From Lysobacter sp. (GTDB lineage Bacteria; Pseudomonadota; Gammaproteobacteria; Xanthomonadales; Xanthomonadaceae): 64,000 bases of DNA. Under the pieces are notes generated by a model. That model made no database searches, was not told the origin of the DNA, and saw only the letters and a list, made by a program, of their open reading frames with translations. The position numbers were made by a program, and so were the translations under genes. The stretch is from contig SSGH01000008.1 in NCBI GenBank assembly GCA_008015835.1, positions 69,165 to 133,164 on the forward strand. Reading direction: 5' to 3'. Of the stretch, positions 46,291 through 51,195 are shown piece after piece. Positions within the stretch are counted from its first letter, which is position 1, and each line of letters starts with the position of its first letter.

Positions 46291-46321
46291 CGCGGAGGCG
46301 TCGCGGCGCGACGCCTCCGCG
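46291..46321. terminator. 14-bp hairpin between convergent genes
   Basis: CGCGGAGGCGTCGC-GGC-GCGACGCCTCCGCG. Confidence 0.65.
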
Positions 46322-46397: not shown

Positions 46398-46976
46398 TTA
46401 CTTCGCCGCGTACGATGCACTACCGTCGAAATCGGCGAGATCGATCTCGCCGGCCAGCACCAGTTTGATGTCGTCCGACGATAGCAGCGTCTTCAACTGC
46501 GCCGCATGCGGCTTCAATTGTTCGTGCGCGACGCACAGCGACCAGATTTGCGCGATCAGCGTATCGAAGCCGACTTTCGGGTCGTATCGAACGGCGCCGC
46601 TCTGCGCGATGATCTGCAGCAGGCTGCGCGCGGTTTCGCGCGCCTGCCGCAGCTTCGACGCGGCGGGCTCCAGCGCGGACTGCACCGCGCTTTGCGCGTC
46701 GTAGACGAGGCCGATCGCGGCCGCTTCTTGTCGCTTGCGCGCGCCGCTGCGGACGCCGTCGTCGTAAGTCGGCGACAGAATGCGCGCTTTATAGCCCGCG
46801 AGCCGCGCCGCTTCGGCCATTCTGTTCGCGGACATCAGCGCTTCCGCCGAATCGATCCAGCGCAGGAACTCGCTCAGCGCCTGCGGCGATTTCCGCTCGA
46901 AGCCGCGCACGATCTCGGGAAGCTTCAGCAGCAAGTCCGTGGTCTGCTGCACCCAGGGCAATATCGAGGATCGCAT
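46398..46976 (-). CDS. Hypothetical all-helical protein, third gene of the DUF2589-like cluster
   Basis: 192 aa; GGAG RBS; starts 6 nt after the upstream stop. Confidence 0.8.
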   Translation of the reverse strand: MRSSILPWVQQTTDLLLKLPEIVRGFERKSPQALSEFLRWIDSAEALMSANRMAEAARLAGYKARILSPTYDDGVRSGARKRQEAAAIGLVYDAQSAVQSALEPAASKLRQARETARSLLQIIAQSGAVRYDPKVGFDTLIAQIWSLCVAHEQLKPHAAQLKTLLSSDDIKLVLAGEIDLADFDGSASYAAK

Positions 46977-46982
46977 GGCGGC

Positions 46983-47687
46983 TCACTCCGGCAGCAGGCG
47001 ACGTTCGACGCTGCCGTCGCTGCGTTCGATCGTCTGCCATTCCATGCCGTCTTCGCCGACTTTCAGGCGGATTCGGATCATGTCTTCGGGGCGCACATCG
47101 CGCAGTCGAGCGGTTTCGGCGATCACCGCCAGTTCGTCGACCACCTGCTTCTCGACCACGCCCTGCACGGTGGACAGCGCGTATTTCTGCAGCGCCCCGG
47201 CGATTTCGTCCGGGCGATTCCCGATCGCGATGCTGCCGTCGAATAGCCCGTACGTCTCGCCGATGCGAACGAAATCCTCGGCGATGGCTTTGCTGAAGAT
47301 CCAGATCGCCTCGTCCAAGGCGTAAGCGCGAATGTGCTCGCACAGCGTGGGCACGCGCTGCGTCAATGCGCCCTGCAGTTCGCGCGCGGCGCCGAGCGGC
47401 AGCGCGGCCGCGCCGGACACGCGCAGAACGAGTTGATACGCGTCGGTTTTGAAGCGGTCGTTGCCGTTCGGCGCGAGCTGCAGTTCGGTGCGCGAGCCGA
47501 CGCCTTCCAAACCGACCGGAATCGTCAGTTCGATGTCGCCGATGCGCATCCGCGGCACTGAAAAATGGCGCAGCAGATCGTGCTGCGCGTATTGCTCGGC
47601 GACTCGCACCGACTGCAGATCGGCCATGACTCGCGCCTGCGTGATGCTGTTGAAGATGCCGCCGATGTATTCGATGAGAGTGGGCAT
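46983..47687 (-). CDS. Hypothetical protein, divergent DUF2589-like paralog
   Basis: EYIGGIF...QAR and VPRMRIGDIELTI resemble VYIGGPL...QAQ and LPALRIEDMTIDF of the neighbouring gene. Confidence 0.75.
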   Translation of the reverse strand: MPTLIEYIGGIFNSITQARVMADLQSVRVAEQYAQHDLLRHFSVPRMRIGDIELTIPVGLEGVGSRTELQLAPNGNDRFKTDAYQLVLRVSGAAALPLGAARELQGALTQRVPTLCEHIRAYALDEAIWIFSKAIAEDFVRIGETYGLFDGSIAIGNRPDEIAGALQKYALSTVQGVVEKQVVDELAVIAETARLRDVRPEDMIRIRLKVGEDGMEWQTIERSDGSVERRLLPE

Positions 47688-47866
47688 GTCGTGATCCTGT
47701 CGTGGTGGCAACGGAACGCGTTGCGGTCGATGAAAACGCCGGACGCGCCCGTCCTGGACGCGTCCGGCGGCCGCGAGCCCGGCATCGCCGAACTCGCGTA
47801 CGCAACGCCGAACGCGCGTTCCTTAACGCGCTCGGCGGTCGCGGCCGTCCGTGGCCGCGTCGCGCA

Positions 47867-48448
47867 TCAGCCGCTGACGATGCTGTCTTCCAGCATGGTC
47901 AGGATGCGATCCAGACCGGCCGGAATGTCGTCGTTGACGGCATGGACCCGAACGCCGAGGTTGTACGTCTTCTCGGTGCTGGTGCCGCTGCTCGCGGTCC
48001 GCTTGTACGAGGCCGAGGCCTTGAAGTTGACGATCTTGTAATTGATCCCCAACTCGGCGCTGGCCGCGAACTCGCTGGAGACGTTCGAGGTTTCGGTCGA
48101 GGTGAGCTTCGCGTTGAAGTCGATGGTCATGTCTTCGATGCGCAGCGCCGGCAGCGTCAGCATCGTCAAGAACGGGACTTTGATGGTCACGGTCTGTTCG
48201 ATGAACTGCAGGTTGCCCGGACCCGGCGGCGAGGCGTTGTCGAAATCCGGATTGGGCACCGATTTCTTGTATTCGAAATCGACGTAACGCAGCTTCTCTT
48301 CGCCGCCGACGGTTTCGAAGCCCACTTCCTTGATGAAGCTCACTTGCGCCATCGACGCGGCGTTCTGCGCCTGCACGGCGGCCTGCAGCGGCCCGCCGAT
48401 GTACACGCTGAAGTCGAGGCTGTTCAGTTCTTGAACGAGGTTCGGCAT
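47867..48448 (-). CDS. DUF2589 family protein
   Basis: IGGPLQAAVQAQ, VPFLTMLTLPALRIEDMTIDF, Ser/Thr-rich segment, P.GL.RIL..L; strong AAGGAG RBS. Confidence 0.8.
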   Translation of the reverse strand: MPNLVQELNSLDFSVYIGGPLQAAVQAQNAASMAQVSFIKEVGFETVGGEEKLRYVDFEYKKSVPNPDFDNASPPGPGNLQFIEQTVTIKVPFLTMLTLPALRIEDMTIDFNAKLTSTETSNVSSEFAASAELGINYKIVNFKASASYKRTASSGTSTEKTYNLGVRVHAVNDDIPAGLDRILTMLEDSIVSG

Positions 48449-48828
48449 CTGTATCGCTCCTTGTCGTTTCGCCTACTCTGTTGCGGCTTTTCGGCATCCG
48501 CCGGCCGCGCGCTGCGCCGCGTGCGATGCCGTCGTCGTCGCGCCCGAAGGCGCGGCGAACGACGAACGTCGGCACGAGTCCCCCTGCGAGCGGCGATGGG
48601 AATCGCCCCTCCGGCGTCGACGATGGGATCCGCTCGGCACGCGTTCGAGCGGTCGTGGAAGTCGCGTCTTGCTTGCGTAGGAACGATTATCCGCAGCGCG
48701 ATCTCAGCCGACGCGATCTTCGGCGCGGCGTTTTTTTATTCAGCGGATGTTGTTTTCTATCGAGAAAAACGAGACTTTTTAAGTCGCTTCTCGCGAGACG
48801 GCCGCTTGCGCGGAAGATCGATCGGCGT

Positions 48829-49377
48829 TCAGTCCAGTTCGCGCAAATCGTCCAGCGTCTGCCGACGCAGGCGTTCGATCGCGTCTTCGATGTCCTCTTG
48901 CGCGAGCGGGTTTCGCTCGTCGATTTCGTGCGCGCGCTTCGCCCACACGTCGAACACCTGCTGCGCTTCTTGCCCGGTTCTCGGCGGCGCCAAATTGCCT
49001 AAATCGCGGATCAGCGCGGCCTTGCCCCAAGCCGATACCCAGGTCGACGTGCTGCGATCGCTGCCGTAATAGCGGATCTGCACGAGTTGCTGCAGCGCCG
49101 CGGATTCTTCGAGGATGATGAAGCACGATTGCCGGATATTGCGGTGCGCTTCCGTCGATTCGTTGCGCCAGGTGTTGTAGGCCAAACCGGTCATCGCGAC
49201 GACGAGACTGATGATGGCCAACGCCCGCCCGCTCCAGTCGCGTGCGGGGCGTATCGTCGCCGATCGCGTCGGCATCGCATCTTGCGCGGCGTTCGTCGAT
49301 GCGCGCGATGCAGGATTCGTCGACGCGGCGGGTGCGTCGTGCGCGGACACGGGCGGATCGCGATCGTCGCGCTGCAT
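48829..49377 (-). CDS. Hypothetical single-TM protein
   Basis: ALAIISLVVAMTGLAYNTWRNE followed by a helical domain. Start uncertain (49275 or 49377). Confidence 0.7.
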   Translation of the reverse strand: MQRDDRDPPVSAHDAPAASTNPASRASTNAAQDAMPTRSATIRPARDWSGRALAIISLVVAMTGLAYNTWRNESTEAHRNIRQSCFIILEESAALQQLVQIRYYGSDRSTSTWVSAWGKAALIRDLGNLAPPRTGQEAQQVFDVWAKRAHEIDERNPLAQEDIEDAIERLRRQTLDDLRELD

Positions 49378-49488
49378 GGCACGGACTCCCTCGGCGCACA
49401 CCGAAGCGCCGACCTTGCGACCGCTCGGCACGCCTTGTCAAGCCGCGCCCATCGACGATGCGACGGCGCGACCTCGCGCGAAGCGGCG

Positions 49489-51195
49489 TCAGGCGTGCAG
49501 CCAGAACGCGCTATCGGCGAATTGCTCCTGCGTCCACCAGCGCGCGCTGCCGTGGCCGTAGCGGAAATTCCGCACGCCGGCTTGGCTGATCAGAGGCGAG
49601 GTCACTTCGCCGCTCGCGTCGCGGCGGGCGCGTTCGTCCCCGGTCTCCGGCACCACCACCGCGATGTGCCCGGAACGATGCTCGACCTTGCGCAGCGCGA
49701 CGATCAAGCCGATCGCGCCTTGATTCGCTTCCTGCTGCAGCTTCGTCGCGGTGCCGGTGCGGCGCCAGCCGAACTCGGGACCGAAATCGCGCAACCAACG
49801 GAACAGGTCGTTGGCGCGCATCTCGAAAATCGTATCGCCGATCAACGGTTCGACGCGCTTGCCGGCCTGCAGATCGATCAGCGCGCGCGGCGACCACCAC
49901 ACGCGCGGCAAATACGCGCCGGCCAAGTGGCAGAAATCGTGCGCATAGATATTGCAGAACGTGGCGCCGCTGCGCGGGCGATAGCGCGCGTGGCTGAGTT
50001 TATCCACCGCCAACCAATCGACGATCTTCGCGATCTCGGCGCGCAGGGTGTCGGTGTCTTGGCCGCGCCGCGTCGGTTGTCCGTCTTCGTTCAAGGAATG
50101 CGCGTTCGCGGGATCCTTTCGACGCGTCAACGTGCCGGGTTTGCGCGGCATGCTGACCGCGACGATACCTTGCCGCGGCGGTTGCGGCGCGGGTTGCACG
50201 ACCGGAATCTCCTCGCGCGTCGGGTCGGCTTTGAGGAACTGCGTCGAGGCGAAGCCGCGGAGCAACGCGCCTTTCAGGCTGGTCTCCACTTCCATGAAAC
50301 CGTTCACCGCTTTGCCGGTGACAGCGCGCACCGGATGCCCATCGGGCAATTCGCCGATGACGTTCGCGGTCGGCGGCGCGCTGATCTTCGGTTCGCGGCG
50401 CAGGCGCAATGTGGAGACGCGCGTCTCGACTTTGAAGAAGCGGCCTTGCGCGGCGACCGGCGTGGGCGGCGCCACGATGGCTTCGCCCGGCGACGGCGTC
50501 GGTAAGGCCGGCGATTGCGGTGCGATCGCGACGGTCTTCGAGAGTCGGATGAAATCGAAAATCGCCTCGCCGTAGAACTTGGTGCCGTTGAAATGGCCTT
50601 GTTTCAGGCCTTTTTCGGGTTTGAAGCGCCCGGTGTTGTAGGCGATGGCCACGCTGGCCGATTCCATGTCGCTCAGCGCGTCGCGATGCTGCAACCCGAG
50701 TTGGTTCAGGCCGCGTTTGAGCTCGCCCAAGCATTGCCCGAGCGTGTCTTCGAAGCGTTCGTATTTGCGCTGCAGGAAGTATTGCGGATCGACCTTGAAG
50801 AACTGCAGATCGCGCTGGAACAGGCCGAAGCCGTGGCAGAACTTGTTCGGTCTTGCGGCGGCGGGGGCATACGCGGGGATTTGCGCGGCCATATCGACCA
50901 GAGCTTTGCGCGCGATGGCGAACATTTCCTCGCCGCGAGGCGCGGCGATCAGGTCTGCCTTGGTTTGCGGGAAGGCGCGGCGGCCGCGGTCGGCATCGAG
51001 CGTATCGCCGACGCACAGCGCGAGGATGGTGTCATCGCTCAGATTTTTCTTGCGCAGCACCGGCCAGACCTCGCCGGTTTCCTGGCAGGCGAGGGCGACG
51101 ATCAAATCGACGCCGATCGGAGTCCCCGCCAGCGTCGGTCGAATCCTGGCTTCGAAGCGTTCCTTGAACCAACGAATGTCGTCCGCGTTCGGCAT
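49489..51195 (-). CDS. Multi-domain peptidoglycan hydrolase (lysozyme-like + SH3b + Cys/His amidase-like)
   Basis: ACQETG and GFGLFQ (lysozyme-like); LRLRREP...IGELPDGHPV (SH3b); TFCNIYAHD and GHIAVV (CHAP/NlpC-P60-like). Confidence 0.75.
   Translation of the reverse strand: MPNADDIRWFKERFEARIRPTLAGTPIGVDLIVALACQETGEVWPVLRKKNLSDDTILALCVGDTLDADRGRRAFPQTKADLIAAPRGEEMFAIARKALVDMAAQIPAYAPAAARPNKFCHGFGLFQRDLQFFKVDPQYFLQRKYERFEDTLGQCLGELKRGLNQLGLQHRDALSDMESASVAIAYNTGRFKPEKGLKQGHFNGTKFYGEAIFDFIRLSKTVAIAPQSPALPTPSPGEAIVAPPTPVAAQGRFFKVETRVSTLRLRREPKISAPPTANVIGELPDGHPVRAVTGKAVNGFMEVETSLKGALLRGFASTQFLKADPTREEIPVVQPAPQPPRQGIVAVSMPRKPGTLTRRKDPANAHSLNEDGQPTRRGQDTDTLRAEIAKIVDWLAVDKLSHARYRPRSGATFCNIYAHDFCHLAGAYLPRVWWSPRALIDLQAGKRVEPLIGDTIFEMRANDLFRWLRDFGPEFGWRRTGTATKLQQEANQGAIGLIVALRKVEHRSGHIAVVVPETGDERARRDASGEVTSPLISQAGVRNFRYGHGSARWWTQEQFADSAFWLHA

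Follow-up and report, generated by a model that had tools for sequence, protein, structure and literature searches.

A strictly syntenic three-gene DUF2589 cassette in Lysobacter and its candidate role as a latent opening of the inner membrane

This study concerns a cassette of three genes, P1, P2 and P3, each without an assigned function, that lies on the minus strand of a 64-kb stretch of Lysobacter sp. DNA (contig SSGH01000008.1; hereafter the window). We find that the cassette is conserved across species far beyond chance, and that it is neither a phage nor a plasmid module. P1, a protein of the Pfam family DUF2589, is predicted to carry a long beta-hairpin whose tip resembles the membrane stems of known pore formers. 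The reading that we favour, tentatively and without calling it probable, is that P1 is a latent, non-holin beta-barrel former that would breach the inner membrane from the cytoplasmic side, leading to lysis or release. The elements of the cassette, in window coordinates, are as follows.

47867-48448, minus strand: P1, 193 amino acids, Pfam DUF2589 (PF11655), the probable major subunit
46983-47687, minus strand: P2, 234 amino acids counted from the ATG at 47687, probably remotely DUF2589-like, with a predicted four-helix insertion
46398-46976, minus strand: P3, 192 amino acids, cassette-specific, starting 6 nucleotides past the P2 stop codon with GGAG ahead of it
48457-48462, minus strand: Shine-Dalgarno sequence AAGGAG of P1, 8 nucleotides ahead of the ATG, read from the sequence
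48470-48504, minus strand: leader RNA, Rfam DUF805b (RF02914), with a 4-bp stem and a 3-bp pseudoknot, ending 22 nucleotides before the P1 start codon
47737-47769, minus strand: stem-loop within the operon, between P1 and P2, of 14 bp (12 G-C pairs) with a TTTT tail, from a terminator scan
46291-46321, minus strand: perfect 14-bp hairpin 3' of P3, from RNA folding, marking the end of the unit, which is convergent with the adjoining plus-strand gene

Conservation and expression of the cassette

A scan that took one genome per species yielded 64 loci with a close relative of P1; genes in the fetched loci were called with a simple open reading frame (ORF) picker. The order P1-P2-P3, the strand and a similar spacing are kept in all 62 of the 62 loci with sufficient flank, and the two remaining loci are an Ignavibacteria contig that stops inside P2 and another contig that stops inside P1. 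An earlier, sequence-only reading of the window had proposed these genes as a three-gene cassette; their linkage is conserved across genomes. Gammaproteobacterial hosts are found among the Lysobacterales and in Rheinheimera, Arsukibacterium, Oceanobacter, Thalassolituus, Alteromonas and Glaciecola. The other hosts are Bacteroidota (Flavobacterium, Tenacibaculum, Bacteroidales and Cyclobacteriaceae) and Balneolia. At least three phyla are represented in all, and an additional triad is present in another class of Pseudomonadota (locus L094). Ahead of that triad, on the same strand, lies a gene for a 174-amino-acid DUF922 protein (L094:6255-6779, E 6e-19) with no evident signal peptide. Beyond P1, P2 and P3, no gene is common to all loci.

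Across species, P1 is 65-95% identical (76% between this genome and Flavobacterium), while in the same pairs identity is 29-41% for P2 and 23-45% for P3. This disparity suggests old transfers together with an unusually strong constraint on P1. At higher ranks, the cassette is patchily distributed: within the organism's own family, 10 of 201 genomes carry it, representing 3 of 64 genera, and in a Pseudomonadota sample it is present in 10 of 401 genomes. These tallies are samples rather than censuses. Within genera, it is stable and sited among housekeeping genes. Searches of 50,697 phage records and of IMG/VR turned up no relative of P1, and canonical DUF2589 queries matched a single 4-kb metagenomic fragment in the viral data. 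We rejected a phage origin because the DUF2589 family is essentially absent from phage genomes. Carriage of P1 relatives on plasmids is limited to three large plasmids.

The sequence-only reading had described P1 as a DUF2589-type gene with a strong ribosome-binding site and an AT-rich upstream region, and P3 as coupled to P2 and closed by a 14-bp hairpin. Each of these features is in place: the Shine-Dalgarno sequence, an A/T-rich stretch at about 48725-48785, a 6-nucleotide gap between P2 and P3, and the hairpin at 46291-46321. A second 14-bp G+C hairpin, at 47737-47769, had not been recorded there. Of 63 loci, 62 have a strong stem-loop in the short spacer between P1 and P2. The stem-loops differ in sequence from locus to locus, and those of A+T-rich genomes often have a T-run on the 3' side. 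The stem-loop at 47737-47769 is a probable attenuator or partial terminator. Since most P1-P2 spacers measure about 60 nucleotides, too short to accommodate a promoter easily, transcription probably reaches P2 and P3 by read-through. The codon adaptation index (CAI), referenced to 20 ribosomal-protein genes of this genome, is 0.73 for P1. Among 2,627 ORFs, this value ranks at the 96th percentile, within the range of the ribosomal proteins themselves, whereas P2 (54th percentile) and P3 (34th) have average codon usage. From the stem-loop 3' of P1 taken together with this ribosomal-like codon usage, we infer that P1 is the major product and is probably made in excess. In the closest relative, the P1-P2 spacer extends to 323 nucleotides (L002:4224-4549) and contains at least seven strong stem-loops (-194 kcal/mol, z -9), which looks like an expansion of the hairpin element.

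The P1, P2 and P3 proteins

P1 matches positions 6-153 of the 154 positions in the Pfam DUF2589 profile (E 1.4e-29; 103.8 bits against a cut-off of 23) and is the one DUF2589 protein encoded in this genome. We found no paper that gives DUF2589 a function; a transcriptome study of Bacteroides fragilis counts a DUF2589 gene among those differentially expressed and offers no usable functional clue. P2 and P3 have no match in Pfam, NCBIfam, PHROGs or PADLOC. In none of these four databases is P1, P2 or P3 assigned to an enzyme family, in agreement with the earlier statement that no enzyme motifs can be recognized in the cassette. Scans of five window proteins returned nothing useful from PHROGs and NCBIfam, and, up to an E value of 0.1, no defence-system match from PADLOC-DB. 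In the PDB, neither sequence nor profile searches found relatives of P1, P2, P3 or a neighbouring 568-amino-acid protein. None of P1, P2 and P3 has a membrane helix or a signal peptide, their maximum 19-residue Kyte-Doolittle hydropathies being 1.30, 1.15 and 0.81, respectively, against a threshold of 1.6.

The AlphaFold2 model of P1 (predicted local distance difference test, pLDDT, 79) consists of an N-terminal helix (residues 13-43), a small beta core, a long hairpin of about 65 residues with strands at 102-134 and 141-172, and a C-terminal helix. When hydropathy is averaged over 51 members of the P1 family, it alternates strictly at residues 127-137 and 140-146. The resulting amphipathic tip is flanked by Ser/Thr-rich tracts (residues 116-126 and 147-163) that are kept across the 51 members, and one distant canonical DUF2589 member shows equal alternation and the same Ser/Thr pattern. 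P1 thus has the amphipathic hairpin by which aerolysin-type beta-pore-forming toxins are recognized. A Foldseek search of the P1 model against the PDB gave no significant match (best E 5.6e-3, template modelling score at most 0.24). The weak top matches are nearly all pore-state stems (anthrax protective antigen, the iota/CDT binary toxins, aerolysin and lysenin) or phage tail-channel hairpins, and they reflect the hairpin alone. A search of BFVD returned one unnamed viral protein.

We asked if P1 and P2 are related. BLASTP detects no similarity between the two, and P2 itself does not match the Pfam DUF2589 profile. They nevertheless have two motifs in common, YIGG...QA(R/Q) and P-x-(L/M)-R-I-x-D-(I/M)-x-(L/I). 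With hhalign, the P2 family aligns to the P1 family at E 0.025 and to the second canonical paralogue at E 0.0032, both at low probability, over a region comprising the N-terminal helix (YIGG...) and the first long strand, 'LL..(V/I)P.(L/M)RI.D.E(L/I)'; in a control, two canonical DUF2589 paralogues match each other at 98% probability. A hidden Markov model (HMM) of the P2 family was also ranked against a database of 2,021 sequences, made up of 150 DUF2589 representatives, 8 second paralogues and 1,863 control ORFs from this genome. All of its top 10 non-self matches were DUF2589 proteins, which constitute 7% of that database. In addition, some P2 homologues give faint matches to Pfam AF_0414 (PF27375), a family named after an Archaeoglobus gene that has been described as DUF2589-related (PMC3949148). 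Given the shared motifs, the hhalign results, the HMM ranking, the AF_0414 labels and the adjacent DUF2589 pairs of other Pseudomonadota genomes (see below), P1 and P2 are likely to be remote paralogues, and the very divergent pair proposed in the sequence-only reading is likely, if not proven.

In its AlphaFold2 model (pLDDT 83), P2 has an N-terminal helix similar to that of P1 and a long strand (residues 52-72), which are followed by four helices (76-173), a return strand and a small sheet. The helical bundle occupies the place of the P1 hairpin tip. Foldseek found no significant match for this model in the PDB. The N- and C-terminal thirds of P2 are conserved and the middle 100 residues vary freely. 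At the C-terminus, ...EDGMEW...G...LLPE is invariant in 38 sequences from several phyla, and this tail resembles a docking or recognition element. P3 always follows P2 in loci with flank; its homologues are confined to the cassette, and searches for homologues and of the PDB detected no relative elsewhere. We rejected P3 as a third paralogue, as hhalign gave E values of 0.63 and 0.14 against the P1 and P2 families. Nothing points towards P3 as an immunity protein, a role that had earlier been suggested for it.

Neighbouring genes and the leader RNA

Two further genes precede the cassette on the same strand.

48829-49431, minus strand: single-pass membrane protein between the 568-amino-acid gene and P1, with a hydrophobic segment at residues 70-88
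49489-51195, minus strand: putative cell-wall hydrolase of 568 amino acids, signal-less, a lineage-specific neighbour assigned from motifs

These had been read as a transmembrane (TM) protein and a leaderless peptidoglycan hydrolase. The former does have one hydrophobic segment and could be spanin-like, but it is confined to the closest relatives (L002, L004 and L065). The latter is indeed signal-less, with lytic-transglycosylase-like motifs (CQETG, GLFQ and AYNTG), an SH3b-like middle and a Cys/His C-terminal domain containing FCNIYAHD and GH..VVPE; about 40% of the columns are invariant in an alignment of seven homologues. The hydrolase assignment itself found no backing from profiles: beyond a weak SH3_3 match (E 0.083), the protein has no Pfam, NCBIfam, PHROG or PDB profile match. 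A canonical SLT enzyme is not supported either, since a comparison by hhalign with six SLT domains from this genome gave E 0.052 with AYNxG alone aligned. The spacing from the Glu to GLFQ is about 85 residues, compared with about 16 in those SLT domains. The 568-amino-acid gene lies upstream of the cassette in this window, L002, L004 and L065 and downstream of P3 in L005, L012, L026 and L028, so in the Lysobacterales it is linked to the cassette in both arrangements, despite the flip in position.

The association with cell-wall hydrolases made in the sequence-only reading is borne out by a comparison of neighbourhoods, chiefly at canonical DUF2589 pairs. Tandem DUF2589 paralogue pairs occur in 8 of 9 other Pseudomonadota genomes. 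In 6 of 10 Pseudomonadota genera, the window's own excluded, canonical pairs stand beside same-strand hydrolases verified with Pfam, which belong to four unrelated families: GH108 with PG_binding_3 (three genera), GH25, GH19 (two genera) and Amidase_3. Most of these neighbour hydrolases are signal-less. The GH108 and Amidase_3 enzymes and one GH19 enzyme start directly with the catalytic domain; the frame of the second GH19 enzyme is over-long, leaving its true start unclear, and the GH25 enzyme has an N-terminal anchor.

In place of P3, canonical pairs have a conserved companion of about 88 amino acids (L089:8107-8373; L090:8317-8583, minus strand; L092:6686-7039, minus strand; L093:7434-7712; L070:5599-5859, minus strand). 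It carries the motifs VKRIVVG, LNRCL, IGEHQVV and YHVGF, is 37-60% identical between genera and belongs to no Pfam family. Among 33 neighbour ORFs of canonical pairs (loci L089-L097, L070 and L071), one encodes a Tle1-like phospholipase domain of the type VI secretion system (PF09994, E 2.8e-69), in line with the idea that genes for other cargo than wall hydrolases may stand beside the cassette.

Outside the Lysobacterales, the recurrent neighbours of the three-gene cassette are regulators only. LytS/LytTR systems lie beside it in Rheinheimera. In Flavobacteriia, an intramembrane-type HisKA_3 kinase, a LuxR-type regulator, a 5-TM protein and a lipoprotein are encoded divergently from the cassette, a layout that resembles that of envelope-stress two-component systems. 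This set is found at L068:5379-7398 (minus strand), with the same genes in L010, L013, L041 and L053, and its HisKA_3 kinase has 249 amino acids, one TM helix and no sensor domain. No protease is present among the conserved neighbours of the cassette.

The leader RNA ahead of P1 scores 43.7 bits with cmscan (gathering score 35.6, E 1.8e-10). The same motif exceeds the gathering score before P1 in 8 of 12 tested loci of other taxa, from Lysobacterales to Tenacibaculum and Balneolia, and its core words are present in 45 to 54 of the 64 loci. It is missing from the Oceanobacter/Alteromonas group, the Ignavibacteria locus and the canonical DUF2589 clusters. To the known stem we added a 3-bp pseudoknot, formed by the loop NCC and the tail GGN'. 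Over stem and pseudoknot together, 95.7% of cells are paired in 33 distinct sequences, whereas shuffled sequences reach 77%. Compensatory changes are seen at 6 of the 7 pairs, one pseudoknot pair appearing as AU, UA, GC and CG. The stem and the pseudoknot both covary. In the literature searched, the name 'DUF805b' was found only in an alignment-method paper; the main text of Weinberg et al. 2017 (PMC5737381), a candidate source of the motif, does not mention DUF805.

The leader is present in a single copy, before P1 only, in this genome and in two other gammaproteobacterial genomes, and three Flavobacteriia genomes have 3 to 11 copies above the gathering score and 6 to 16 at E up to 0.01. In Flavobacterium and Tenacibaculum, the extra copies precede genes for small double-glycine-leader (bacteriocin-like) peptides and for signal-peptide proteins (L108:1558-1722; L112:1554-1733; L109:509-1483; L113:1555-2202; L114:2-1468; L117:1554-2279). 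This arrangement suggests that these genera may have a leader-defined regulon that includes the DUF2589 cassette. The Tenacibaculum loci L041, L043-L048 and L053-L062 also have a common palindrome, TATTTCGAAATA, about 10-25 nucleotides upstream of the leader motif. It overlaps an apparent Bacteroidota-type promoter and may be an operator site.

A latent membrane opening and its rivals

According to the reading that we favour, the three genes would form one attenuated operon whose abundant product, P1, would be soluble and cytoplasmic. P1 would be stockpiled as a latent barrel former and, upon a signal, would oligomerize and insert its hairpin into the cytoplasmic membrane from inside. P2 would have retained the N-terminal helix and the hairpin base, with its helical bundle replacing the membrane tip, and P2 and P3, made in small amounts, might gate, cap or nucleate the assembly at substoichiometric levels. 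Signal-less wall hydrolases, and perhaps other cargo, would pass through the opening to the periplasm; in this lineage, the 568-amino-acid neighbour would be the enzyme passed. The outcome would be self-lysis or a lysis-type release. In support, the modelled hairpin, with its amphipathic tip between Ser/Thr tracts, bears what appears to be the signature of beta-barrel pore-former stems, and the LytS/LytTR and intramembrane-type kinase neighbours are of the type that governs holin-like genes or monitors the envelope. The strictly kept gene order, the lack of membrane helices and signal peptides in all three proteins, the linkage of the 568-amino-acid gene in either position and the probable excess of P1 also speak for it. 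A conserved non-enzymatic module accompanied by exchangeable lysins that lack signal peptides is a hallmark of holin-endolysin systems, yet no holin-like protein is present here. In function, the cassette would take the place of a holin and be related to type 10 secretion; in mechanism, it would stand closer to soluble death effectors that form barrels, such as Pepco.

The comparison with these systems reveals both likenesses and differences. As in holin-endolysin(-spanin) cassettes and in type 10 secretion (Yersinia entomophaga, PMC10847048; reviewed in PMC9527704), a conserved small non-enzymatic module stands beside interchangeable, mostly signal-less hydrolases, and as in type 10 secretion the DUF2589 cassettes are chromosomal rather than phage-borne and lie near dedicated regulators. 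The endolysin-type neighbour expected of a holin is found for the DUF2589 family and is putative at this locus. The TM helix expected of a holin is absent, and the membrane-active candidate is instead a soluble beta-hairpin protein probably made in excess; nor was a spanin pair seen or a cargo identified. Soluble cytoplasmic beta-barrel pore formers have a bacterial precedent in Pepco and EACC1 (bioRxiv 10.1101/2025.11.14.688446), which, like gasdermins, are small and signal-less, are predicted or shown to form barrels that act from inside on the membrane of their own cell, and can be stored latent. These proteins, however, are protease-gated and stand in a defence context, whereas the cassette lacks a protease or sensor, has obligatory P2 and P3, and shares no sequence similarity or significant fold similarity with them. 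Aerolysin-type and binary-toxin stems have a similar alternating hydrophobic/polar hairpin between Ser/Thr tracts, but P1 has 193 amino acids, no signal peptide, no receptor-binding domain and no significant fold match. Finally, P1 is a full-length member of the family that includes the Archaeoglobus fulgidus DUF2589 cluster AF0414-AF0417 (PMC3949148), and tandem paralogues are the rule in such clusters. The present subfamily differs from canonical clusters in its fixed P1-P2-P3 order, the helical insertion of P2, its own third protein and the DUF805b leader.

Several observations weigh against a latent pore. The tip of the hairpin is modelled poorly (pLDDT below 50 at residues 128-152), and the pore idea draws on this low-confidence prediction and on Foldseek matches that fall short of significance (E above 1e-3). 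The 568-amino-acid neighbour is a putative hydrolase that no profile confirms, and most three-gene loci outside the Lysobacterales have no adjoining hydrolase, which is also a difference from holin cassettes. The cassette encodes no protease or other obvious trigger. Moreover, ribosomal-like codon usage and the 65-95% identity of P1 are easier to reconcile with an abundant structural protein than with a suicide device or toxin. We keep the reading tentative because the hairpin tip is of low confidence, because a structural assembly fits the conservation and codon adaptation equally well, and because the case is computational throughout.

Such an assembly is the alternative that survives best, although we think it rather unlikely. 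P1 would build an abundant non-lytic structure (a filament, tube, shell or membrane-associated scaffold), to which P2 and P3 would contribute minor capping or adaptor subunits, and the neighbouring hydrolases would help to install or reshape it across the wall, or be coincidental. The far greater conservation of P1 than of P2 and P3, the near-universal attenuator 3' of P1 (62 of 63 loci) with a CAI in the ribosomal-protein range, the stable chromosomal position among housekeeping genes within genera, and the absence from phage genomes and defence-system models are all consistent with it. It leaves unexplained the family-wide amphipathic tip between Ser/Thr tracts, it has no match to a known filament, tube or shell fold to draw on, and the presence of four unrelated, mostly signal-less hydrolase families in 6 of 10 genera is hard to call coincidence.

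We regard as improbable a third possibility, that P1 is a stored pore-forming toxin directed against grazers or competitors and freed by lysis of the producer via the linked hydrolases. Pneumolysin, which is likewise signal-less, is released through autolysis. P1 is signal-less and abundant, its hairpin is like the pore stems of aerolysin-type and binary toxins, the leader RNA in Flavobacteriia also precedes genes for double-glycine-leader peptides and secreted proteins, and the hosts include Lysobacter, Tenacibaculum, Flavobacterium and Rheinheimera, genera that we take to be lytic or antagonistic. Against this, identities of 65-80% across phyla are seldom seen in toxins, obligatory P2 and P3 are unexplained, and signal-less hydrolases would still need passage across the inner membrane.

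Two further readings seem to us very unlikely. In the first, the cassette would be an abortive-infection or defence module in which P1 is a gasdermin- or Pepco-like death effector triggered by phage. Its scattered occurrence (in 10 of the 401 genomes of Pseudomonadota and, within its own family, 3 of the 64 genera), the pore-former-like P1 and the precedent of Pepco, EACC1 and gasdermins would suit such a module, but there is no PADLOC match and no protease or sensor in the cassette, P1 evolves slowly with high codon adaptation in a housekeeping context, and the cassette is conserved within genera rather than variable between strains. In the second, an envelope-stress module like PspA or LiaH would stabilize or repair the membrane under the adjoining two-component systems, as the divergent Flavobacteriia gene set (HisKA_3 kinase, LuxR-type regulator, 5-TM protein and lipoprotein), LytS/LytTR in Rheinheimera and the abundance of P1 might hint, but there is no similarity to PspA/ESCRT-III or other repair proteins, the regulators vary by lineage and are absent in many, and the hydrolase linkage goes unexplained.

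For this subfamily, the quantified synteny, the P1-P2 attenuator, the asymmetry in codon bias, the P2 rank test and the leader pseudoknot are new, and the last is a separate lead, being a very small structured RNA that is kept across phyla. Lysis-type (type 10) secretion, explosive lysis and vesicle formation all pose the question of how signal-less wall hydrolases and large cargo leave a cell in the absence of a holin, and a compact, widespread, strictly syntenic three-gene cassette with a clear major subunit makes that question directly testable. A broader proposal, which we consider doubtful but worth stating, is that DUF2589 cassettes represent a new class of membrane-breaching machine, composed of an abundant soluble beta-hairpin protein with a paralogue that lacks the tip, independent of holins and proteases and used by bacteria and archaea of many phyla, that would release signal-less enzymes or lyse the cell on command; the present subfamily would then be tuned by its own 35-nucleotide leader pseudoknot, which would have travelled with the genes between phyla. 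Should P1 prove to be a regulated inside-out beta-barrel, holins, gasdermins and Pepco would be joined by a new pore architecture, and controlled protein release would gain a simple tool.

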